DNA of 32,875 nt from IMG/VR virus record IMGVR_UViG_3300032225_002522, positions 1 through 32,875 of that record. One strand, written 5' to 3'. Positions 1 to 32,875 of this stretch are shown here, piece after piece. This DNA is from a virus. Taxonomy: Duplodnaviria; Caudoviricetes. Under the pieces are notes generated by a model that searched no databases, was not told the origin of the DNA, and saw only the letters and a program-made list of their open reading frames with translations. Each line of letters begins with the position of its first letter. Positions within the stretch are counted from its first letter, which is position 1. Position numbers and translations under genes: made by a program.

Positions 1-381
1 AACGCGTCAAACCTTTTCTGGCAAGATAGCAAGATCCGTTGGGTTGACCCGAGAGGAGAGTTCTGGGGACACTGGCTCCATGACGTTGCAAAAGCCACAA
101 TGTCTTTTCTTCACTTTTATGACCACGTTGATTGCCAGGAGACAGCATCGGCGGACCACAAGGAGTTCTACGTAAACGTCGGATGCATCGAAAGCTACTA
201 CAATATGACAGCTCTCTTTGAGCAATGCATTTTACAACCGCTATCACAAGAGGAAAGGCACTTTGTTGGTCTTGTTGAAGCTTCTCTGTTCTTGTCTTGC
301 ATACCGCTACACTACGACAGACCAAAATCTCAAATGACCTTCGCCGCCATTGGCTCTAGACTAGCAAAGCAACTCCTATGA
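1..381 (+). CDS. 5'-truncated APH/choline-kinase-fold kinase of the capsule-locus (BcbE-like) type, C-terminal part
   Basis: Frame 1 is open from base 1: NASNLFWQDSKIRWVDPRGEFWGHWLHDVAKATMS...YD...ASLFLSCIPLHYD. This resembles the SN..IDPRG..YDxAK..YD..SLFLSMxPLHxD pattern of capsule-associated APH-like kinases. The stop overlaps the next ATG (ATGA, 378-381). Confidence 0.7.
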   Translation, partial: NASNLFWQDSKIRWVDPRGEFWGHWLHDVAKATMSFLHFYDHVDCQETASADHKEFYVNVGCIESYYNMTALFEQCILQPLSQEERHFVGLVEASLFLSCIPLHYDRPKSQMTFAAIGSRLAKQLL

Positions 382-1262
382 AAAGACCTTCTGATATCCG
401 CGATTTGTTTGTATACTTTGTTGAGGAGCGGGAGCGTATACGAGTTATGCGAGACTGCTTGGGTGACTTGCCGCCGTACACGGAAGACCCAACCCTCCAG
501 AAATACAGCTTTTGCAATGTCAACCGAGAGCACGACCGTGTCACCCGTTGGGTTGCTGACAACGTCCGTAACCTGGAAATCACACACGAACAGATGGTTC
601 TGAACATTGCGGTGGCTAGGATCTTCAACGAGCCAAGAACACTGAAGCACCTTCTGCCGTTCTCGAAGCCCAAGTCTCTTGTTATGAAAGTGGCTCGGCT
701 GAAGCGGGACAACCCAGATGTGTCCCTCTTTCGTGGTGCGTATATGATGCCGTCACATGGTACGTCTGGTAAGGGTGTCTGTTCTTTCGAGTATTGGTGT
801 AACAATGTTGTGAGCCTCGAACAACTCAGCTTGCAAGAATGTGACAGCCTCCGATCCCTATCCGATGTAATCAGGCAAGCGAAAGGGTTTGGCGACTTCC
901 TTGCGAACCAGATTTGCACAGACATGCGATACACCAGATTCTACCCTACAAGTAGGACACCGGATTGGACGACGTTCGTCCTTGCTGGTCCAGGTACACA
1001 ACGAGGTATGGCGAGATACTACAAGACAAAACCGTTTGGGCCAAACGTGTTCCGCCAGTCTAGAGGATGCAACCAAGAGAGGCTTGTGGCGTTACGCGAA
1101 GAACTTTCAAGTGTTGTGAGCCCGAACATTCTGAGCCACTTCCAGGACATCAACAACCTTTCCAACTGCTTCTGCGAGTTTGACAAATTCTGCAGAGCGA
1201 TTGACATAGCACCTTCTGACACTCGACACAGAGTTGGGCTGAGGGAATTCAAGAAACGATAA
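378..1262 (+). CDS. aGPT-Pplase clade 1 / 5-hmdU DNA kinase helical-domain family protein (thymidine hypermodification)
   Basis: Motifs ERERIR..PPYTEDPTLQKYSFCNVNREHDRVTRW, RIFN, GAY, GFGDFLANQICTD, GPGTQRG and NCFCEFDKF; adjacent to a thymidylate synthase homologue. Confidence 0.8.
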   Translation: MKRPSDIRDLFVYFVEERERIRVMRDCLGDLPPYTEDPTLQKYSFCNVNREHDRVTRWVADNVRNLEITHEQMVLNIAVARIFNEPRTLKHLLPFSKPKSLVMKVARLKRDNPDVSLFRGAYMMPSHGTSGKGVCSFEYWCNNVVSLEQLSLQECDSLRSLSDVIRQAKGFGDFLANQICTDMRYTRFYPTSRTPDWTTFVLAGPGTQRGMARYYKTKPFGPNVFRQSRGCNQERLVALREELSSVVSPNILSHFQDINNLSNCFCEFDKFCRAIDIAPSDTRHRVGLREFKKR

Positions 1263-1299
1263 CAACAACAACAACAACAACAACAATAACAACAAACAT
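1261..1299 (+). repeat. (AAC)8 microsatellite plus degenerate units, filling the leader of the TS-like gene
   Basis: aac x8 at 1261-1284, then aat aac aac aaa cat, then ATG at 1300. Confidence 0.9.
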
Positions 1300-2358
1300 A
1301 TGATAGCCACACAAGCAAGAAACATGCATGATCTCACAAAGAACCTGCTCCCGGAGTTCGGTCGCATTGGAATCTCTGAAGAAACACGCAACGGGACTGT
1401 GCTCCGGTTGCCAGGGGTTGTATGCGCGGAGTTGAGTTCCCCGATGGAGAACGTGTGCCTCTTTGAAGCGCGGGATGCAAACCCGTTTTTCCATTTGATC
1501 GAAGCCATGGCGATGCTCGTCGGATACAACTCCAATACGCTGTTGTCCTACTTCGCAAGCAACATGAACAATTTCAGCGACGACGGACTTACATACAACG
1601 CATTCTACGGTTCAAGAGCAAGGACAACTTTTGGCGACCAGCTCCTGGCTTGCATCAACATGCTTCACAAAGAGCCGAACACCAGAAGGGCAGTTGTGAC
1701 TCTTGTAGATCCGGCGGATTTGACAAAGGAGACAAAGGATGCTGCGTGCAACCTTTCCATGGTCTTCAGTATCCAGGATGAAAAGGTTTGCATGACAACC
1801 TACAACCGCTCCAACGATGCCATCTGGGGTTACTTGACAGGCGCGAACATGGTTCACTTCCCGTTCTTCCAGCTCTTTGTGGCGAACTCTCTTGGTCTTG
1901 AGCTTGGGTCTTGGACACATGTGAGTTGCAACATGCACGTCTACGTCTGGAACGAGAAGTATCAGAAACTTTGTGACAGTGTCAGAACGGCTTCAAGGGA
2001 TCTTATCAACCCTTACGATGCGTTTGGGTTGACTTGGTCGCCGTTGTTCCACAGACCACTGCGGAAAGTGTTTGAAGATCAGATGACATTTCTGCTCACA
2101 AGAATGGAAAGTAATATCAGGCATGAAAAGTTTGAGACGGCACAGGATCCGTCATTCTACTTACCGTTCATAGGCAGAGTTGTCGTGCCAATGTTCAACG
2201 CTTTTCAGGTGTACAAGGCACACAAGGCTGGGCTTTTAGACCATGCTGCCGCTTTGTCTGATTGCCAATTCTGGCTTGACAAGATGCCAGAAGGTAATGA
2301 TTGGTGCTTTGCCGCCAAGAGTTGGCTTTCGAAGCGGTTCAAGACCGAAAAGATGTGA
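1300..2358 (+). CDS. Thymidylate synthase homologue, probably dUMP hydroxymethylase (5-hmdUMP synthase)
   Basis: RDANPFFHLIEAMAMLVG, TRRAV, catalytic Cys in DAACN, RSNDAIWG..GAN (Asn at the dUMP-specifying position) and NMHVY; context next to aGPT-Pplase1. Confidence 0.8.
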   Translation: MIATQARNMHDLTKNLLPEFGRIGISEETRNGTVLRLPGVVCAELSSPMENVCLFEARDANPFFHLIEAMAMLVGYNSNTLLSYFASNMNNFSDDGLTYNAFYGSRARTTFGDQLLACINMLHKEPNTRRAVVTLVDPADLTKETKDAACNLSMVFSIQDEKVCMTTYNRSNDAIWGYLTGANMVHFPFFQLFVANSLGLELGSWTHVSCNMHVYVWNEKYQKLCDSVRTASRDLINPYDAFGLTWSPLFHRPLRKVFEDQMTFLLTRMESNIRHEKFETAQDPSFYLPFIGRVVVPMFNAFQVYKAHKAGLLDHAAALSDCQFWLDKMPEGNDWCFAAKSWLSKRFKTEKM

Positions 2359-2509
2359 AAAATCTCCCTCCCGCAGCCCTCATAAAATCTAGAAAAACGA
2401 AAATAGTTTGAGAATTCGCTTTACGTTTTTGTGAAAATAGTGCACATTGTGTCTGTCGCCCTGAGCGGCTCTAACCTCAAACCAAACTACTACTACTACT
2501 ACTACCATG
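2359..2509 (+). repeat. Promoter/leader repeat, copy 1 of 3
   Basis: Near-identical to 29723-29864 and 32723-32864: 6 substitutions versus copy 3, plus (TAC)6 instead of (TAC)3. Begins right after a stop codon and ends at an ATG. Confidence 0.95.
2415..2448 (+). promoter_or_regulatory. Putative sigma70-like promoter inside repeat copy 1
   Basis: TTCGC-TTTACG (2420-2425), 17-nt spacer, CACATT (2443-2448), with A-tracts upstream. Confidence 0.6.
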
Positions 2510-2704
2510 AAAGCAAAACCATTACACAATTACAAGCTGTTGGGAACTGATATCGTTCTTGATGTTCAAAAGACCTATGGATTCTCCCATGCCACCACTC
2601 AACCCGATTGGAAGGAAAAAGGTTTGATCTTTATTCATGAGCGCAAGTATGATCCCGTAGGGGTTCTATTGGAGCGTGGGGAATACCTGATCGTTGAAAA
2701 CTAA
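2507..2704 (+). CDS. Hypothetical protein (65 aa)
   Basis: The ATG lies directly at the end of repeat copy 1. Confidence 0.7.
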   Translation: MKAKPLHNYKLLGTDIVLDVQKTYGFSHATTQPDWKEKGLIFIHERKYDPVGVLLERGEYLIVEN

Positions 2705-2748
2705 ACGATAACAACACCATGTTTGTTGATTACAAAACTACTACTACC

Positions 2749-3048
2749 ATGAACACTACTACCAAAAGAGTTTCCGCCACCGAAAAAGAGTTCCACCGCA
2801 CGATGAAACGGTTCAGCGACCAGGGTCACGATGTCCGGATGATCGTGACCCCTGCGAGCGAATACTTTGGCGAGTCCGTCGCCTTTGATGTCTTCGGTAA
2901 CAGCGCGTATGCAGCATTCACTCTCCGCAAATCAGGAGGGTTACGTAAGCGTACAACCGTTATGACCTTTGGCATGATCAACGGCAAAAAGGTATCCCTC
3001 AGAGATGCAATTCGCCGTATTGGAACCCCTGACAAAAAGAACGAATGA
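2749..3048 (+). CDS. Hypothetical protein (about 99 aa, MNTTTKRVS...)
   Basis: Leader aaactactactaccATG is the same as in the repeats, and the stop overlaps the next gene (ATGA). An alternative start exists at 2719. Confidence 0.7.
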   Translation: MNTTTKRVSATEKEFHRTMKRFSDQGHDVRMIVTPASEYFGESVAFDVFGNSAYAAFTLRKSGGLRKRTTVMTFGMINGKKVSLRDAIRRIGTPDKKNE

Positions 3049-6600: not shown

Positions 6601-6986
6601 ACTGGTCGTCTTTGTTTGTGGTGGTAGAACTGGACTGTGTCAAACTCGCTGAGGAGAGTTTTCAGTTTGGAGAAGCAAGAGAAAGTGTTTTCGGAGAGGT
6701 GAAGTATCATGACTTCCTCCGTCAAGACACCAACGTGGTAGCGCAAACCCTTTCTCCCGAACACTGCAACGTCTCCGACGGCTGGCTCCTCCGTTGTTTC
6801 CCAAGTGTCCTCATCTTTGGAGCGAAGTGCTATCGCCTTTTCCGCGTCACGGACAGCATTGCTGACAGAGATTACTTGCGGCTCCAGCTTGATACCAAAC
6901 TCGTTGTTGTAGATGTAGCAAACAAAGTCCCAGCAATTGAAGTCTGGCTTCCAACGGAATCCTAGGTATTTTGTTGGCGCGTTCAT
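6579..6986 (-). CDS. NlpC/P60 tail assembly protein (lambda K-like)
   Basis: FNCWDFV...GDVAVF...YHVGV...ILHL; ATGA overlap with the upstream gene at 6983-6986. Confidence 0.85.
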   Translation of the reverse strand: MNAPTKYLGFRWKPDFNCWDFVCYIYNNEFGIKLEPQVISVSNAVRDAEKAIALRSKDEDTWETTEEPAVGDVAVFGRKGLRYHVGVLTEEVMILHLSENTFSCFSKLKTLLSEFDTVQFYHHKQRRPVCQDLPS

Positions 6987-8053
6987 TGCAAAGACGGACA
7001 CTTGGTTGGTGTGTAGAACTCGTTCGGGAAATTCGCATTGTGGAGATCAATCCAAGAAAGCTGACAAGACACAAGAGACCCTTTGATTTCGAAGTCCGTT
7101 GCGTACAGCTTCAGTGGCGGGACGTTCTGTGGTCCACTTGTGTCTCCTTCTTCGTAGATACGGATTATGACTTCTAGGGGCAGCGTGTATGCTTTGGCAC
7201 GAGTGAGGAAACGGGATACTTGCAAATCCGAATTATCAATAGTCACAGGCACACCGATGGAGCCTTCCTCTCCACTGGTGAACGGCTCAATTGAGAAAGA
7301 CCTTTGGAGGAAATCCACTTCCGCGCCTGTTTCAATGAGAGCTGTGAAGTTTCGGTTGTCATTGACAAGATAGATCGGATCTTCAACCGGAGAAGCAATG
7401 CCGCGCAGCACGGATATGATCTCCTCGGTCAGGAGCTCTCCCGTAGTTTCTTCAAGCCGTGCGCCACGAGTCACCTCAGCGAGACTGTCATAGTCTTCAT
7501 CTGAGAGGGAGATGCCATAGAAGAAAAAGATTGACTCGTTCAACAGTGCGTTCCTTGCTTGTGAAAGTGTGCTCCCCCTTTCGTGACTGCCAACATCGGA
7601 GACAAGGATAGCCGCTCTGGCGGCTTCGTGATCCCAAGGCAGTTCCCTTGCAGCCATCTTGGCAGCTCCAAATCCGTTCTCGAGGGAATCCCCTCCCCCG
7701 CTTACGCTAATCGCACCAAGGATGTCAAGCGCGCCACCCAGGTCGTAAAAAGGCTCACCCCCAGAAAGGACGATCTTGGTTTCTCCAGGTCCCTCGTCTT
7801 TGAACGTAACAATGGAGTAACGTATCACCGGAAACTCTTCTGCCAGACCTGCCGCGACACCTTCGATCGCCGTGATGAACTCCGCGATCCTTGAAGCCAT
7901 GGATCCAGTTGTGTCGATCAAGAAGACAAGGTCAAGTTGCTCACCAACATCGGTGGCAACTTGCCGTATCTCCAAAGTTTGTATCTCCCTCGTGTTGACA
8001 GGGAACACGTTCCTGAGCTCAAACAGTCGGTCACTTTGTGTCGTATCGGGCAT
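6983..8053 (-). CDS. DUF1833-like tail hub protein with an inserted von Willebrand factor A domain
   Basis: DUF1833-like N-terminus (IQTLEIR) and C-terminus (PIYLVND..IDNSD..GPQ..PPLKL..NANFPNEFYTPTKCPSL) surround a vWA domain (LDLVFLIDTTGSM, GGGDSLE, AILVSD). Confidence 0.8.
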   Translation of the reverse strand: MPDTTQSDRLFELRNVFPVNTREIQTLEIRQVATDVGEQLDLVFLIDTTGSMASRIAEFITAIEGVAAGLAEEFPVIRYSIVTFKDEGPGETKIVLSGGEPFYDLGGALDILGAISVSGGGDSLENGFGAAKMAARELPWDHEAARAAILVSDVGSHERGSTLSQARNALLNESIFFFYGISLSDEDYDSLAEVTRGARLEETTGELLTEEIISVLRGIASPVEDPIYLVNDNRNFTALIETGAEVDFLQRSFSIEPFTSGEEGSIGVPVTIDNSDLQVSRFLTRAKAYTLPLEVIIRIYEEGDTSGPQNVPPLKLYATDFEIKGSLVSCQLSWIDLHNANFPNEFYTPTKCPSLQ

Positions 8054-26205: not shown

Positions 26206-26736
26206 ACCATTAAGTGTTTACTCTCGTCAATACTAACTGTAAAGCGAAATACCGGACTGAACAATACTACAACTCCTATCTATCATAACCCAAAGAACCC
26301 TCTCAGTTGACAACTGTCTCTATACGATATGACAAAAAGAAATCCATAAAACCGCTCAACACCACCCACTTCTTTGCTCGTGCTCGAAAACTCTCTCGAA
26401 TAGGGCTTTTAACTAAAACTATTCACTTTTCATTATTATTTTTCCATCCCAATTCACTTTTATTGAAACATCGAGCAAACTTAAATACCAAAATACTTGT
26501 GCTTAGTATGATCTTCATTCCCAGTCGGTAAGTATCATTTTGTCATCTCTGGAGCTTTTTACTCATAAACAAGATTTTGATACTTTAATATTTTCCCAAT
26601 TTTCACAGATTTATCACAACGAGCACGCACTTTGTCGCGATAGGTTTCTGGAAAAATACAATCGATCAAGTATCTTTTTCGCTTTACAAATCTTTCAAGA
26701 CAGGGCAATGTGGCCAAGCACCAACCACGTCCACAA
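26206..26736. promoter_or_regulatory. AT-rich divergent control region (late arm / replication arm)
   Basis: No convincing ORF. TTCGCTTTAC on the minus strand at 26239-26248 and on the plus strand at 26678-26687 (TTTACA-17-CAATGT); ATTCACTTTT direct repeat at 26421 and 26452. Confidence 0.7.
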
Positions 26737-29400
26737 ATGGAAGCACAAGAAGATTCAACGTCCCACGAAGCACTCTTTTTTGGAGGAACAGACAAACAAC
26801 TCAAGACCGTAAAAGCTCTACCACATAGGAGCTTCCGCGCTCTTGCTGATCAGATGTTCAACGTAGCAGTACTAATGAACCTCACAAGAGAAGAGTTCCA
26901 AGCACTACCGGAAGAAGATCGCCGCATACGGAAGCGTGTGCCATACCTTACTCCTTGCTGCTTCAACACCAGCCCTTGCCACCGCTCCTCAGAGTATGCC
27001 ACCAACTGCAACTTGATATTCCTGGACATAGACCCGGACAAGGAGAGTGGGAGATACGTGGCGGCTCCATACGTGGATGCACCATGGACATTGGTAGAGC
27101 AATTAATGCCATTCAACTTTGCTGTCTATCACACAGCATCTTCCATGCCAAAGAAGCCGCGCATACGGGTGGTTGTTGAAGCCGATGGCTTACCACCGGA
27201 CAAGTACCGAGATGCTGTCCTCTATGTAGCGCGTCTGATCGGATTGGTTGAAATAACAAAAGAATCCTTTACCTATGTGCAACCGATGTACCTTCCGACC
27301 ATCTTCAAAGGCGAAGCTGAACAAGACATACACCCGCTGATTGTGCAATGCTTGGATGGCAGAGCAGTAACCCTCAAAGATATTAAAGCTGTTGCTTCCA
27401 CACATGGCACAGGAGAAAGCAAGAACCAGAAGAACATGAAGGCGGAAAACTACACAAGCGGTGACGTGCTTGACTTCCTTCGCCCCATCGTAGAAGAGGT
27501 AACCCTTGAAGACGCTGCCGCTGCCTTGGCACACGTGGATCCAGACGTCAACTACCCAGACTGGTTGGAGATCGCAGCCGCGCTACGACACCAGTTCACC
27601 GGAGTGACAAGCGAAGACGCTTATGTTATTTTTGACGAATGGAGTTCGCTTGGCACCAAGTATGCCGGACAGAAGGACACGAGAGCCAAATGGGACAGCC
27701 TTCGCCCCAACCCAGTGAACCGTGTGCCCATAACAATTCGTTCTCTGCTCCATCGGGCACAGGAGAGTGGTTGGGACGGCAACCGCACCATGGAGAAATG
27801 CTTCCATGCCACCCGCCAATGGATATCACACATGAATCGCACCGCTACAACCCTAATGACCGAGGGACTTGGCAAGATAATCGCGACACCTATGATTAGC
27901 CAAGCGGGTGAGGAGGCTCTACTGAACATGATCGTAGAAGAGTGCCGTAAACGGTTCAGCGTGCGTGTCTCTACTGCGTCTCTCCGAAAGGATCTGGCCA
28001 ACATGCGCCTTGAGATGAAGGAGAAGAACAACAAGAAGAAAGATATTTCCCCACCATGGACCAAGGGTCTGTGCTATGTTGCCGCTACTGACCAATTCTT
28101 CAGACAGGCAACCGGAGAACGATTTAGTCCTGTGGCGTTTGACCGCTACTACTCAGCAAAACTTATGACGACACCGGAAGGGACGCCGATGTCTTCAAAT
28201 AGCGAAGTTGGGGCAGCTGGTAGACCAGCGGTAAAGCCACAGGACTATTTACTCAACCAGATCCAAGTGCCGAAGGTGTATGACTACGTGTACGATCCCC
28301 GCTTTCCGTCTGACACGTTCCTACATTACTCCAACCGCCCTTTTGTAAATACCTATGTGCAAAACTTTCCAGAGCCTGACAAGAAGACAAGCAAGGAGTG
28401 CGGTCAACTGTTCTTAATGCATCTACGCAATCTTGTCGAAGAGGAAGAGTATCGCAACACACTAATGGACTTTCTTGCCTATCTTGTCCAGTTCCCAGGA
28501 AAGAAGATCCGGTGGGCATGCCTCATACAAGGGGTAGAAGGTTGTGGTAAGACATTTATCGCGGAAGCGATGAAAGCGGTTCTCGGTATCGGGCATGTCC
28601 GGACAGTAGACAACAATGCCATCTCGTCGGCGTACAACGATTGGGCATATGGGTCACAGCTCATAACCTTTGAAGAGATCCGCGTCGCCGGACACAACAG
28701 GCACGACATCATGAACGTGCTCAAACCACTCATCACAAATGAAAGCATCAACGTCAACCAAAGGTACCGAGACAGCAGACAGGTAGACAACACAACCAAC
28801 TACATGTTGTTCACAAACCACCACGATGCACTTGCGCTGACAAAGGGGGATCGCAGATACTTTGTTCTCAAGAGCCGACTACAAACTAAGGAGCAAGTAG
28901 CGGACATAGCAGAAGGGACACACTACTTCACAACCCTGTTCAACATGTTGAAGAACCGCCCAGGAGGGTTACGGCACTTCCTCGAGAACTGGCCAATATC
29001 TGCGGACTTCGAAGCCGACGGACATGCACCGAGAACCAAGTATATGCTAGAAATGCTGAACGACAGCACCAATGAAGCTTGGCTTTTCTTGAAGGAGTTC
29101 ATAGAGGAGGGACGGCACCCGTTGCTTAGTTTCGATCTGATATCCTCCACAGCAGCCATGGAAGTATTGGAGGCTTCGGACGAATACCGTGGCAGACCGT
29201 TGAGCGGCAAGATGTTGTCCGCTGTTCTCCGAGACGAGAGCTATGTGCGCACCGGAAGGGCAAGGATAGAAAACCGCACGCACCACATCTGGGTGAAAGC
29301 TGGTAGCGCGGCTACGAAGATTAATGCCAACGTCGAAGCCAATGCCCGATACAAAGCGTTCTCACAAATTGAAAGTGTAGATTGGGATCTACTGGAGTAG
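26737..29400 (+). CDS. Primase-helicase (primase-polymerase N-terminus, PriCT-2, SF3/DUF5906 helicase)
   Basis: LIFLDID, YHTASS..PRIRVVV, YPDWLEIAAAL..FDEWSS.GTKY, Walker A GVEGCGKT, FEEI, MLFTNH, DRRYFV. ATG 26737 is preferred because GTG 26710 overlaps the predicted -10 element. Confidence 0.9.
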   Translation: MEAQEDSTSHEALFFGGTDKQLKTVKALPHRSFRALADQMFNVAVLMNLTREEFQALPEEDRRIRKRVPYLTPCCFNTSPCHRSSEYATNCNLIFLDIDPDKESGRYVAAPYVDAPWTLVEQLMPFNFAVYHTASSMPKKPRIRVVVEADGLPPDKYRDAVLYVARLIGLVEITKESFTYVQPMYLPTIFKGEAEQDIHPLIVQCLDGRAVTLKDIKAVASTHGTGESKNQKNMKAENYTSGDVLDFLRPIVEEVTLEDAAAALAHVDPDVNYPDWLEIAAALRHQFTGVTSEDAYVIFDEWSSLGTKYAGQKDTRAKWDSLRPNPVNRVPITIRSLLHRAQESGWDGNRTMEKCFHATRQWISHMNRTATTLMTEGLGKIIATPMISQAGEEALLNMIVEECRKRFSVRVSTASLRKDLANMRLEMKEKNNKKKDISPPWTKGLCYVAATDQFFRQATGERFSPVAFDRYYSAKLMTTPEGTPMSSNSEVGAAGRPAVKPQDYLLNQIQVPKVYDYVYDPRFPSDTFLHYSNRPFVNTYVQNFPEPDKKTSKECGQLFLMHLRNLVEEEEYRNTLMDFLAYLVQFPGKKIRWACLIQGVEGCGKTFIAEAMKAVLGIGHVRTVDNNAISSAYNDWAYGSQLITFEEIRVAGHNRHDIMNVLKPLITNESINVNQRYRDSRQVDNTTNYMLFTNHHDALALTKGDRRYFVLKSRLQTKEQVADIAEGTHYFTTLFNMLKNRPGGLRHFLENWPISADFEADGHAPRTKYMLEMLNDSTNEAWLFLKEFIEEGRHPLLSFDLISSTAAMEVLEASDEYRGRPLSGKMLSAVLRDESYVRTGRARIENRTHHIWVKAGSAATKINANVEANARYKAFSQIESVDWDLLE

Positions 29401-29402
29401 AC

Positions 29403-29717
29403 ATGAAGATAGAACACATACCGATAGAACTTCTTGTGCCGCACTATCTTGTGCACTGCGCAGCGTACTATGTGTACAATGCGTCTCTTGTGACAGACAA
29501 CGAGTTTGATACGTTGTCAAAGAGGGTATACGACGCATGGGATTGCATAGAGCATCGTCACAAGACTTTGATAGACAGAACCGCGCTCCGAACAACAGGC
29601 GCATACCTGGTCAACAAGCTCCCCGGCATCGTGCTATCCGCAGCCGAGCAGTTCATACTTGAAGGGGCTCCAAAAGTAGCAAAAATGTCGTTCGACCCGC
29701 TCGAGCTGCTCCGGTAA
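29403..29717 (+). CDS. Stand-alone NAD-dependent DNA ligase subdomain Ia-like protein
   Basis: AYYVYNASLVTDNEFDTL resembles the YY..D.P.ISDAEYD.L motif of LigA domain Ia. Confidence 0.65.
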   Translation: MKIEHIPIELLVPHYLVHCAAYYVYNASLVTDNEFDTLSKRVYDAWDCIEHRHKTLIDRTALRTTGAYLVNKLPGIVLSAAEQFILEGAPKVAKMSFDPLELLR

Positions 29718-29722
29718 GTGTC

Positions 29723-29864
29723 AAAATCTCCCTCCTGCAGCCCTCATAAAACCTAGAAAAACGAAAATAGTTTAAGAATTCTCTTTACGTTTCTGAGAAA
29801 ATAGTGCAAATTGTGTCTGTCGCCCCGAGCGGCTCTAACCTCAAACCAAACTACTACTACCATG
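29723..29864 (+). repeat. Promoter/leader repeat, copy 2 of 3
   Basis: 4 substitutions versus copy 3, which lies exactly 3000 nt downstream. Confidence 0.95.
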
Positions 29865-30581
29865 AACCTGAACGACAAAACAATCGCAAAGATCAAAGCA
29901 CTCCTCAACCTCGCGGACACCTCCCGTGGCGCGACAGAGGAAGAAGCCAAAGCCGCCATGCAGAAAGCTGGTGAGCTTATGGCAAAGTACGGCTTGGAGA
30001 TGGCTGACCTCTCTGAAGAAGAACAGAAGCAGCAAGAAGTTGAGGGTGCACAGTTCAAGATGGACATGCGGGAACGCATCATCCATCGCGCTGTCTACCG
30101 AATCATCGCACAATGCTTCGAGTGCAAAATCCTTTGGGACACGCACTACGTTTCCGGTAAGAAGAAGCAAGCCTACTACGTCATCGCTGACCCAGTAACC
30201 CTTTCGCTGCTTGAAACCCTTATCCCGTATCTCTACAAAACTATCCTGTCCTGCTTCACCGCATGGCTCAAGGCGAATGACAACTCCTGGAGTGCTCTCT
30301 ACGAGAAGTCCTTCAGCGACGGGTTCGCTTCTGGCTGCATCGCCGCCAACAAGAAAGCCAAGGAAGAGCTCGTCAAGGTCGCTTGTGCCGAAGTCAAGTA
30401 CGCTCTTGTTGTCGCTGACATGAAAGAGAAATGTGAACTCAAATGTGCCGAGATGTTCCCGAAGATGGGCACCAAGAAGCACAGCTCCCGCACCCAAGGA
30501 TATGACTCCGGTGCTTACTCCTCAGGAGCCGCCAAAGGAGCCGCCACCAACCTCAACAGAACCGTAAACCTCAAAGGATGA
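29862..30581 (+). CDS. DUF2786-domain protein
   Basis: KIKALLNLA...ATEEEAKAAMQKAGELMAKYGL; the ATG lies at the end of repeat copy 2. Confidence 0.85.
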   Translation: MNLNDKTIAKIKALLNLADTSRGATEEEAKAAMQKAGELMAKYGLEMADLSEEEQKQQEVEGAQFKMDMRERIIHRAVYRIIAQCFECKILWDTHYVSGKKKQAYYVIADPVTLSLLETLIPYLYKTILSCFTAWLKANDNSWSALYEKSFSDGFASGCIAANKKAKEELVKVACAEVKYALVVADMKEKCELKCAEMFPKMGTKKHSSRTQGYDSGAYSSGAAKGAATNLNRTVNLKG

Positions 30582-30799
30582 ACAACGAACCCACAGAATT
30601 CAGGCACCTCCCCGTGGGTGCCACCTTCTTCATCGATCTCTACCCAGGCAACGAGTATCGCAAGCATGGAGACAACAAAGCGGTATTCGTCAATAACCGC
30701 AACGGCAGTCAGTATAACGGTTGCGAATGCATTCTACCAAGTGCAACCCTCACCCGCAAACAACCCCTACACTTCAACGCAGAAGACCTACTATCATGA
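30578..30799 (+). CDS. Hypothetical protein (73 aa)
   Basis: ATGA overlaps on both sides. Confidence 0.7.
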   Translation: MNNEPTEFRHLPVGATFFIDLYPGNEYRKHGDNKAVFVNNRNGSQYNGCECILPSATLTRKQPLHFNAEDLLS

Positions 30800-31002
30800 A
30801 CAAGCACCAAGACACTACGACACCGGAAGAATCTTACGTGGTTTGCTTCCTTCTATCAAACGGCAAAGAGCGGGAGCATCCAGGTTTCCGCAATGTCAAG
30901 TCAGCGAGGAACTTCGCAAAATCTTCCCTACGCGGAAGTGACGAGTTCCTTCGAGCAGTGGTAAAACATGGCGGTAAAACCCTTGTCCGTATCGAGCGAT
31001 GA
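30796..31002 (+). CDS. Hypothetical protein (68 aa, MNKHQD...)
   Basis: ATGA overlaps on both sides. Confidence 0.65.
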   Translation: MNKHQDTTTPEESYVVCFLLSNGKEREHPGFRNVKSARNFAKSSLRGSDEFLRAVVKHGGKTLVRIER

Positions 31003-31634
31003 ACATCTTTGCGCTAGACAACGATCCGAAGCTGGCAGCCTCCTACCATTGTGACTACCACGTGCGTGGGAAGATGATCCTGGAGACAGCCCAGATCATG
31101 TCCTCCGCTTTGCGCTTGCGTTTGCCACAGAAGTGGTGCAAAGGTCTCTACCTGTTGACTCACTACAACCATCCTTGCGTTGTGTGGGCAGCACAGTCCT
31201 ATCAGAATATGCATTGGCTGTATAGGCTTGCTCAGCAACTTGAGATTGAGCGCAAGACCCGCTGCGCAACAGCAAGCAAGCTGGAGCACAAGAGCTTGAA
31301 AGTTATTGACATAGCAACTGAGATGGCTGAAATGAACAAGACAATGTTCCCACTCCACGAGAGAACTCCTTTTGTCAAAGTTGTTGACGAGCGCAGCAAG
31401 AAGATAGCGGATCCTGTTGAAGCATACCGCAACTATTACAAGACGGAGAAGTATGACATCACTGGACCACAACACGGATGGCGATTTGGAGCACCGGATT
31501 GGTACAGTACTATGCCTTACTGTGACTGGTGTGATGACAGAGCTGTTCAATATGCCGCTGCCCAGCCGTTCTGCCGAACATGCCTTGAGAAATTTGCAGA
31601 TACAATTGAAGCAACCAACAAAACAACAAGATGA
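30999..31634 (+). CDS. Pyrimidine-dimer DNA glycosylase / endonuclease V-like family protein
   Basis: MNIFALDNDP..A..HCD.HV.KMILETAQ.MS..THYNHPCVVWA..AYRNYY..K signature. Confidence 0.8.
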   Translation: MNIFALDNDPKLAASYHCDYHVRGKMILETAQIMSSALRLRLPQKWCKGLYLLTHYNHPCVVWAAQSYQNMHWLYRLAQQLEIERKTRCATASKLEHKSLKVIDIATEMAEMNKTMFPLHERTPFVKVVDERSKKIADPVEAYRNYYKTEKYDITGPQHGWRFGAPDWYSTMPYCDWCDDRAVQYAAAQPFCRTCLEKFADTIEATNKTTR

Positions 31635-31978
31635 GAATATGTATTGACATCGATGGCGTGCTTTGCGAAGTACGTAGACCGGACCAAACCTATGCCGAGG
31701 TAAAAGCAATCCCAGGTGCCGTTGAAAGCGTCCGGCATCTCAAAGAGAAAGGACACTACATTATCTTGCACACCGCGAGACACATGCAGACGATGGCATC
31801 AAACCTTGGCAAAGTAAACGCAAACATAGCTGCGATAACACTTGAGTGGTTGCGTGTCAACGGGATCGAGTATGATGAGATCTACTTTGGCAAGCCCAAC
31901 GCGGATGTGTACATCGACGACCGAGCCGTGTGGTTTCTCAGCTGGTCAAGAACACTTAAAGCAATCAGAATGTTATGA
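31631..31978 (+). CDS. Capless HAD phosphatase, EcbF/BcbF-like (capsule biosynthesis phosphatase family)
   Basis: DIDGVL, ILHTARHM, WL..NGIEYDEIYFGKP, YIDDRA. Confidence 0.85.
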   Translation: MRICIDIDGVLCEVRRPDQTYAEVKAIPGAVESVRHLKEKGHYIILHTARHMQTMASNLGKVNANIAAITLEWLRVNGIEYDEIYFGKPNADVYIDDRAVWFLSWSRTLKAIRML

Positions 31979-32721
31979 ACATCATAATACCAATGGCGGG
32001 AGAAGGTAAGAGGTACTTACAAGGAGGATTTCAAACTTGGAAACCCTTTATACGAGTTGGCACGGGGAAGACCCTGCTGGAGCTTGCAGTAGAATCCTTG
32101 AACATCCCGGACGGGTTCAGAGTTACGTTTGTATGCACCAAAGAGCAGGAAGCGAGATGGAGCGTTCGGGCAACGATCAACCACCTGTTTTCAAGACAAT
32201 CTTTTCGCTGTCGTTTTATACATCTCCCAAAGTTGACAAGAGGACAAGCCGAAACCGTTTACGAGTCTCTGATGTTTGAGCGATCAGACGCGCCACTTGT
32301 AATTTACAACTGTGACACTATCTATCGTTCAAAGCGAAACATCTTTGAAGATGTAGCGACATCAAAGAGTTGCCTTCTTGGAACGTTTCAATCTACGAGC
32401 CCTAGCTACGGATACGTGTCTCTGTCTGACACCGGATTGGTGACAGAGGTAACAGAGAAGGTTGTTGTCAGCAGTAACGCATGCAACGGTCTCTACACGT
32501 TTCCTTCTACGAGAATGTTCAAAGATGTCTACGACCGTCCTTGTGTAGGAGATGCTATGCCAGGAGAGAAGTACGTTGGACCTCTCTACAACCGTGTGAT
32601 ACAAAGCGGTCTTTGTGACGTCCGTCCTTGGGATACGGAAACGGTTACCATTGGCACACCGGAGGAGTTCCTTTTTTACACAAAAACACAATTGGAGAGT
32701 GAAAACAAGAGCGGGTTGTAG
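31975..32721 (+). CDS. Sugar/alcohol-phosphate nucleotidyltransferase (GT-A fold; capsule-locus BcbG-like)
   Basis: IIIPMAGEGKRY..G...KPFI, TRGQAETV, IYNCD, YGYV, EK...S..ACNGLYTF, E.YV.PLYN, GTPEE. Confidence 0.85.
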   Translation: MNIIIPMAGEGKRYLQGGFQTWKPFIRVGTGKTLLELAVESLNIPDGFRVTFVCTKEQEARWSVRATINHLFSRQSFRCRFIHLPKLTRGQAETVYESLMFERSDAPLVIYNCDTIYRSKRNIFEDVATSKSCLLGTFQSTSPSYGYVSLSDTGLVTEVTEKVVVSSNACNGLYTFPSTRMFKDVYDRPCVGDAMPGEKYVGPLYNRVIQSGLCDVRPWDTETVTIGTPEEFLFYTKTQLESENKSGL

Positions 32722-32722
32722 A

Positions 32723-32864
32723 AAAATCTTCCTCCTGCAGCCCTCATAAAACCTAGAAAAACGAAAATAGTTTGAGAATTCGCTTTACGTTTTTGAGAAA
32801 ATAGTGCAAATTGTGTCTGTCGCCCCGAGCGGCTCTAACCTCAAACCAAACTACTACTACCATG
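32723..32864 (+). repeat. Promoter/leader repeat, copy 3 of 3, followed by a truncated gene start (ATG 32862, MNTT...)
   Basis: Direct sequence comparison with copies 1 and 2. Confidence 0.95.
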
Positions 32865-32875
32865 AACACTACTAC

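Follow-up and report, generated by a model that had tools for sequence, protein, structure and literature searches.

What would a phage equipped to make 5-hydroxymethyluracil (5-hmU) do with an enzyme that activates sugars? This question is raised by a virus contig (Duplodnaviria; Caudoviricetes), IMG/VR record IMGVR_UViG_3300032225_002522, whose 32,875 bases are the window analyzed here. At its start lie the end of an APH-fold kinase gene, an aGPT-Pplase1 gene, and a thymidylate synthase (TS) homologue. A HAD phosphatase and a nucleotidyltransferase lie at its end. A preliminary description of this DNA proposed that an activated sugar or polyol is transferred onto 5-hydroxymethyldeoxyuridine (5-hmdU) or onto phospho-5-hmdU. 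We favor, with a probability of roughly 0.55, the reading that the phage replaces thymine with 5-hmU and glycosylates 5-hmU directly, using a sugar that it activates itself through a kinase resembling AfhE. The attached sugar is likely self-made and a sugar other than glucose. Of the proposal, the transfer of an activated donor onto 5-hmdU is thus retained as the best reading. Transfer onto phospho-5-hmdU is less likely than direct glycosylation, because the middle gene, a member of PF18723, is the homologue of M6 gp55 and not the 5-hmdU kinase.

To our knowledge, the characterized hypermodifications of phage thymidine attach amino acids or amines by way of phospho-5-hmdU, and the characterized sugar modifications of phage DNA are on cytosine derivatives. 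One of the latter is made by the Afh pathway of Straboviridae (AfhE/AfhF of HY126; gp51, gp52:53, and gp55 of RB69; gp81-83 of DLP3), which supplies UDP-D-arabinofuranose for arabinosyl-5-hydroxycytosine (PMC13326640). As summarized by Lee et al. 2026 (PMC13326640, citing HY126), the AfhE-type kinase forms arabinose 1,5-bisphosphate, a HAD phosphatase converts this to arabinose 1-phosphate, and the N-terminal domain then produces UDP-arabinose.

The kinase fragment and its neighbors

Frame +1 of the window has no stop codon between base 1 and the one at 379-381 and encodes 126 residues with the motifs DPRG, HDVAK, and SLFLSCIPLHYD. The stop overlaps the next ATG, at 378 (ATGA); both the open frame and the overlap had been recognized in the preliminary description. 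The frame begins at NASNLF, which in relatives comes after the catalytic YHGDP. While no Pfam or NCBIfam model matched the fragment, phrog_21938 did (E 7.8e-13). A search of 1.84 billion representatives returned 113 homologues at E<=0.001 (best, 2.6e-26); 83 are at least 430 residues long, and 72 carry a nucleotidyltransferase domain. The two best, P0034 (42% identity) and P0001 (48%), are nucleotidyltransferase-kinase fusions of 518 and 525 residues. In a model of P0034 (mean pLDDT 86.7), the first 240 residues match RmlA/GalU-type nucleotidyltransferases. Fold searches with this model returned nucleotidyltransferases only, so the structural comparison leaves the kinase half untouched.

A kinase tree was built as a quick version over 136 columns, with four rows dropped for want of the anchor motif. 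The fragment groups with P0034 and P0001 (SH-aLRT 99) inside a 39-row clade (SH-aLRT 95). Nearly every full-length member of this clade is a fusion, the exceptions being stand-alone kinases like the one in S-SKS1. The phiR1-RT row is a long branch of unsure placement. An alignment containing the fragment (A4) was also compared with phiR1-RT g053 (RB69ORF052c) and matched it over 397 columns (probability 99.25%, E 5e-20). Since the family aligns with g053, which is of the published protein type, homology ties the window kinase to AfhE/RB69 gp52:53, a donor enzyme already known from phage DNA glycosylation. The fragment itself is likely the end of a fusion of about 520 residues.

This changes two earlier views of the kinase. 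It had been placed with capsule loci, but it scores 108 (P0034) and 105 bits against the two fusions and at most 35 bits against 67 bacterial kinase open reading frames (ORFs). It had also been set apart from known components of phage DNA modification, whereas it is an AfhE-type homologue, and kinase, HAD, and nucleotidyltransferase together constitute the published UDP-arabinose route. Patterns from the three closest kinases matched no viral locus, hence P0034 and P0001 come without gene context. Fusion-clade patterns gave no confirmed locus among bacterial genomes, which is weak evidence.

The acceptor is indicated by the TS homologue. This protein matches PF00303 and phrog_5131 (E 1.2e-71) and is 33% identical over 354 columns to M6 gp58, which we take, from gene position, to be the hydroxymethylase of M6. 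Residues D147, C150, D173, and N183 are common to both proteins. Asp147 lies three residues ahead of Cys150, and Asn183 stands at the position of ThyA Asn177, in line with the dUMP-type Asn noted earlier. The choice of substrate depends on Asn177, the residue at position 143 correlates with products being hydroxymethylated, and a D169N change distinguishes 5-hydroxy-dCMP synthases (PMC13326640). The window protein has the catalytic Cys, Asn at ThyA position 177, and a residue other than Leu at 143. It also has RSND (Asp173); Asp169 is thus kept, and D169N is absent. Together these residues point to a uracil-specific dUMP hydroxymethylase.

Between these genes lies the aGPT-Pplase1 gene, which scores 136.6 bits against PF18723 (cut-off 25) and is 27% identical to M6 gp55. 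It had been assigned to a 5-hmdU-DNA-kinase family, and this assignment is not supported. The 5-hmdU kinase of M6 is the P-loop protein gp54, and together with gp51 it was enough to yield glycinyl-T in the absence of gp55 (Lee et al. 2021, PMC8989533). The name given by Pfam, 'kinase, helical domain', misleads here and is no proof of kinase activity for the gp55 family. A model of Pplase1 weakly resembles helix-hairpin-helix (HhH) glycosylases, which make up most of the top Foldseek rows. No Foldseek match reached E<=0.001, and a sequence search of the Protein Data Bank (PDB) gave nothing meaningful. M6 gp54 itself (L161 4393-4956), the proven 5-hmdU DNA kinase, carries the misleading RefSeq label 'terminase small subunit'.

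Phage loci with the fusion

The company kept by the kinase family was examined at 35 phage loci with the nucleotidyltransferase-kinase fusion, a redundant set in which some contigs appear twice. A HAD gene is present at 33, TAGT at 20, TET/JBP at 20, a TS homologue at 7, and GT-B at 3. The complete genome of Stenotrophomonas phage DLP_6 (L001 6440-10730) has TAGT, then a HAD gene that lacks annotation (7317-7697), the fusion, and a Tet_JBP gene. A search for cytosine C5-methyltransferases, positive in 9 of 14 controls, gave none for DLP_6 or for four incomplete contigs. Pyle et al. (bioRxiv 10.1101/2023.12.21.572611) reason that 5-hmU is the probable product of dioxygenases that have no methyltransferase nearby. 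In DLP_6, which lacks the methyltransferase, 5-hmU is therefore indicated as the acceptor, and we infer that the AfhE-type donor family already serves 5-hmU in such phages.

The Tet_JBP gene of DLP_6 is annotated 'SNF2 DNA repair protein'. Enterococcus phage 9183, from a Gram-positive host (L111 5902-12433), has TS, HAD, the fusion, and two likely glycosyltransferases. One viral contig (L114 2050-12488) carries fused as well as split kinase/nucleotidyltransferase sets, adjoining a TS homologue.

The kinase position in related loci

In M6, gp54 lies directly 5' of gp55. In the window, the APH kinase occupies the gp54 position and overlaps the gp55 homologue. This slot is swappable among relatives, where it holds AADT with a P-loop kinase, TAGT, GT-B, radical SAM, or other genes. 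Among 101 loci with the same TS type, 61 have P-loop/AADT genes only, 20 have a glycosyltransferase only, 20 have neither, and none has both. Clustering at 70% TS identity gave 22 P-loop/AADT groups, 13 glycosyltransferase groups, 6 with neither, and 1 mixed group, whose two cassettes are on different contigs. With the mixed group counted as 'both', a Fisher test gave p of about 1e-5, a value to be read with relatedness and short contigs in mind.

Three complete relatives (G001, G002, and G008) have TAGT and lack the P-loop kinase and AADT; the PF18748 search was negative in all three and positive in G016. In G001 (TAGT and GT-B) and G002, such genes sit in the slot beside Pplase1 and TS. The window has no match to AADT (PF18724) and none to the P-loop 5-HMUDK (PF18748), the usual slot of this kinase included, in a genome estimated as 74% complete. 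A sugar-donor kinase in the slot fits the glycosyltransferase branch.

The same slot holds other cassettes elsewhere. At L035 (5603-9619), myo-inositol-1-phosphate synthase, AADT, a dual-specificity phosphatase, and a P-loop kinase precede Pplase1 and TS, suggesting inositol transfer to phospho-5-hmdU. An unassigned ORF and a PIG-L deacetylase fill it at L042 (64-1487); radical SAM, FkbM methyltransferase, and TAGT at L048 (5578-7942); and radical SAM, TAGT, and GT-B at L002 (7163-9983).

The assembled genome and its gap

The window is the whole record, a linear contig with an estimated completeness of 74% and no terminal overlap. Head and tail genes are on the minus strand, primase is at 26710-29400, and a plus-strand arm, broken by the assembly, occupies both ends. 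The complete relative G001 (49,922 bases) has the same gene order, with identities to the window of 69% for capsid, 65% for terminase, 42% for portal, and 51-54% for primase. Its order after primase is DNA polymerase A, SNF2 helicase, modification cassette, Pplase1, TS, HD hydrolase, and DUF3310. From primase to Pplase1 this spans about 20.4 kb, of which the window holds about 6.5 kb. An identical copy of the window nucleotidyltransferase is recorded on a 45,763-base contig. From the G001 span, the completeness estimate, and this recorded contig, we infer that 12-14 kb are missing between base 32875 and base 1 and that the genome measures about 45 kb. An HD hydrolase follows TS in M6 and most relatives; it is absent at window 2358-3045, where a repeat and small genes are found.

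In X1, the sole run with the phage, base 1 is likewise where the contig starts, and the loose ends listed include none at this position. Long contigs of X1 have similar depth (9 to 11), and the HAD block is found on a contig of 2,914 bases that terminates in a 145-nucleotide repeat. This repeat-ended contig, the intervening repeat, and the similar depths indicate that the two window ends likely belong to one genome, yet not to one operon. A circular join of the nucleotidyltransferase to the kinase was considered and ruled out by the lack of terminal overlap and by the intervening stop codon and repeat; the repeat-ended X1 contig also counters it. An exact pattern search of viral contigs for the missing DNA gave no match, and a second pattern gave 8 metagenome matches, none similar to the window. 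X1 contigs also break at an (AAC)n run at 1260-1298, between Pplase1 and TS.

The HAD phosphatase, the nucleotidyltransferase, and the repeats

The HAD and nucleotidyltransferase described at 31631-32721 are both present (Table 1), and it is these two that are the capsule-type genes of the window.

Table 1. Coordinates of the genes and repeats discussed in the text
Feature	Position	Strand	Evidence
C-terminal 126 residues of an APH-fold sugar-phosphate kinase, AfhE-like	1..381	+	Profile, homologue, and tree evidence
aGPT-Pplase1 (PF18723), M6 gp55 homologue	378..1262	+	Profile, alignment, model
TS homologue, predicted dUMP hydroxymethylase	1300..2358	+	PF00303, phrog_5131, residues
145-nucleotide intergenic repeat, copy 1, directly 3' of the TS stop	2359..2503	.	
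145-nucleotide repeat, copy 2, opening the block that ends in HAD and nucleotidyltransferase	29723..29867	.	
Small HAD phosphatase, EcbF/BcbF- and AfhF-like	31631..31978	+	Profile matches, identity to bacterial HADs
Stand-alone sugar-1-phosphate nucleotidyltransferase, bacterial capsule/lipopolysaccharide type	31975..32721	+	Profiles; overlaps HAD stop
145-nucleotide repeat, copy 3, at the end of the contig and of the HAD-nucleotidyltransferase block	32723..32867	.	

Identity of the HAD reaches 63% with bacterial HADs and is 24-48% with those beside phage fusions. It matches phrog_1238 and PDB entry 1xpj; its best NCBIfam match, TIGR01689 EcbF-BcbF (E 4.9e-18), scores 65.3 bits, below the cut-off of 162. 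Eighty bacterial loci were fetched with the nucleotidyltransferase. A related kinase was found at 65, a HAD at 59, and both, and hence the full trio, at 57; the window pair has no adjacent kinase. WavE occurs at three of the six bacterial loci inspected. The only named phage matches of the nucleotidyltransferase are 17 cyanophage records. Its stop lies 2 bases before a repeat copy, and it stands apart from the kinase, with no fusion between the two; the kinase for its part has no HAD downstream.

The pair is, by sequence comparison, probably bacterial in origin and acquired separately from the kinase, because the HAD is nearer to bacterial HADs while the kinase scores so low against bacterial kinases. 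By estimate the pair lies 12-14 kb upstream of the kinase and may or may not be coupled to it. Pair and kinase could complement each other, or a second HAD could lie in the gap. The presence of two nucleotidyltransferases was rejected as proof of two separate modules, since bacterial loci often have a fused and a separate one. Just 5' of the HAD, at 30999-31634, is a phrog_624 gene with homologues near Pplase1/TS at L007, L009, L018, L038, and L097.

The three repeat copies are 91-100% alike and end in a CTA run and ATG. They are likely a phage expression signal; a promoter/terminator scan of 29400-32875 stayed at chance level. X1 shows loose ends and increased depth, a hint that the unassembled DNA contains more copies.

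Proposed pathway and alternatives

In the pathway that we propose, the TS homologue would make 5-hmdUMP, to be built into DNA during replication, as the residues common to M6 gp58 suggest (step 1). By homology to AfhE/AfhF, the kinase would phosphorylate the anomeric carbon of a sugar monophosphate, a HAD phosphatase would remove the distal phosphate, and a nucleotidyltransferase would make the nucleoside diphosphate (NDP)-sugar (step 2). The kinase gene probably supplies this nucleotidyltransferase as its off-contig N-terminal half, and the HAD could be the gene at 31631, at about even odds, or another in the gap. A predicted DNA glycosyltransferase of the TAGT or GT-B type, encoded in the unassembled 12-14 kb, would then join the sugar to the 5-hydroxymethyl group (step 3). 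The product would be an O-glycoside like base J, formed without passing through phospho-hmU. A furanose is the likely sugar, with D-arabinose, ribose, or fructose as candidates. Pplase1 would be a conserved accessory, and the likely purpose is protection from host nucleases.

Several observations weigh against this pathway. All of its chemistry is drawn from homology, and the kinase/5-hmU combination is so far a singleton at a truncated locus. The kinase is a fragment whose N-lobe and catalytic Asp (HGD loop) lie off the contig. No TAGT, GT-B, or other glycosyltransferase was found within the assembled 32.9 kb, and no sugar isomerase in the window. The HAD and the stand-alone nucleotidyltransferase differ in ancestry from the kinase. 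An AfhE-like kinase or either type of nucleotidyltransferase occurs at none of the 101 hmU-type TS loci, and the co-occurrence of the trio with 5-hmdU genes that had been suggested as a check thus came to 0 of 101. The fusion alignment matched none of 10 related records, a comparison run with no positive control and with 6 of the 10 records incomplete. Pplase1 is absent from all 35 fusion loci, and by the profiles used 5 of the 35 lack TAGT, TET, TS, and GT-B.

An alternative that we regard as unlikely is that the DNA carries plain 5-hmU, and that kinase, HAD, and nucleotidyltransferase make a sugar donor for other targets, such as glycoproteins of the virion or a glycan on the host surface, or else are remnants. 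The nearest relatives of the HAD and nucleotidyltransferase are indeed bacterial, at loci with WavE and other genes for surface glycans, the only named phage matches of the nucleotidyltransferase are the cyanophage records, and the window shows no transferase. The 20 loci with neither cassette also count in its favor, though many of these are short. The position of the kinase speaks for modification instead: its gene overlaps Pplase1 in the modification slot, and its clade mostly adjoins TAGT, TET/JBP, or TS genes.

A little less likely again is a variant in which a P-loop 5-HMUDK plus an AADT from genes in the gap make 5-phosphomethyl-dU, whose phosphate is displaced by a kinase-made sugar or polyol. 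An NDP-sugar is a donor for glycosyltransferases and needs no phospho-hmU. The P-loop gene lies directly 5' of Pplase1 in M6 and six listed cassettes, the very place of the APH kinase here, and the window holds neither AADT nor the P-loop kinase. On its side, the P-loop/AADT cassette is the commonest (61 of 101), a quarter of the genome is outside the assembly, and the inositol-1-phosphate synthase at L035, found with AADT, a phosphatase, and a P-loop kinase, indicates that polyol genes can join the AADT route. That the APH-fold kinase now serves as 5-hmdU DNA kinase in place of the P-loop enzyme, with Pplase1 or an AADT in the gap as transferase, is very improbable: it has the exact position of M6 gp54, overlapping the gp55 homologue, but it is homologous to a sugar-phosphate kinase family and its nearest relatives are fused to sugar nucleotidyltransferases.

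Within direct glycosylation, the candidate sugars differ with the partners assumed for the kinase. Arabinose and ribose are candidates from the phage side; fructose becomes one if the HAD-nucleotidyltransferase pair is used. In such a hybrid, which we consider quite improbable as a specific pathway, the phage AfhE-type kinase and the captured bacterial pair would make NDP-fructofuranose from fructose 6-phosphate and fructosylate 5-hmU. In the literature searched (subscription papers mostly outside it, supplements excluded), we found no report of fructosylated thymidine and no biochemically defined NDP-fructose route.

Relation to known systems

With the Afh pathway, the window shares a homologous kinase family, a homologous HAD, and a location beside a TS homologue. 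The window TS, however, keeps Asp169 and Asn177, whereas the Afh TS is a D169N 5-hydroxy-dCMP synthase. The window also lacks an arabinose-5-phosphate isomerase and a transferase, its HAD is not adjacent, and its phage, at about 45 kb, is not T4-like. The hypermodification systems of M6, PaMx11, ViI, phiW-14, and SP10, as described in PMC8989533, are matched by homologues of M6 gp55 (27%) and gp58 (33%) in the same order. They differ in the defining P-loop 5-HMUDK (gp54) and AADT (gp51), which are not in the window, where a sugar kinase stands at the gp54 position.

In the TET/JBP and TAGT clusters of Pyle et al. (for example, DLP_6), TAGT and HAD are likewise neighbors of this kinase clade. 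Among the genes that Pyle et al. list near phage glycosyltransferases are APH phosphotransferases, and they report GT-A and GT-B genes beside ThyS; the sections covered here do not characterize the donor pathway. There a dioxygenase hydroxymethylates on DNA, while in the window phage TS would act before replication.

Base J of trypanosomes, beta-glucosyl-5-hmU, uses UDP-glucose as donor. The predicted window product would also be an O-glycoside of 5-hmU. Base J arises by JBP oxidation (PMC13229309), whereas the window route would be pre-replicative with a phage-made donor.

The bacterial capsule trio BcbE/BcbF/BcbG of Pasteurella multocida type B is echoed by the best match of the window HAD, TIGR01689, and by the HAD-nucleotidyltransferase overlap, as in several bacterial loci. 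We take BcbE to be a kinase and BcbG a nucleotidyltransferase. The window HAD has no preceding kinase, and the window kinase falls outside the bacterial group. The fructose side chain requires both BcbE and BcbG (PMC13552107).

Each component is known, be it the donor module, the acceptor enzyme, or TAGT; the combination of these known parts is new. The literature searched contained no report of natural glycosyl-5-hmU in phage DNA and no paper on an AfhE-type gene beside a dUMP hydroxymethylase. If the reading is right, the locus would join a uracil acceptor to an arabinose-type donor module. The prediction is testable in DLP_6, a cultured phage with the same donor family beside TAGT and TET/JBP. 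A 5-hmU DNA transferase with a non-glucose donor would be a useful labeling tool, and it would bear on which defense nucleases these phages escape.

Apart from the modification genes, the tail region of the window encodes, at 6983-8053 on the minus strand, a protein in which a von Willebrand A domain is joined to DUF1833.

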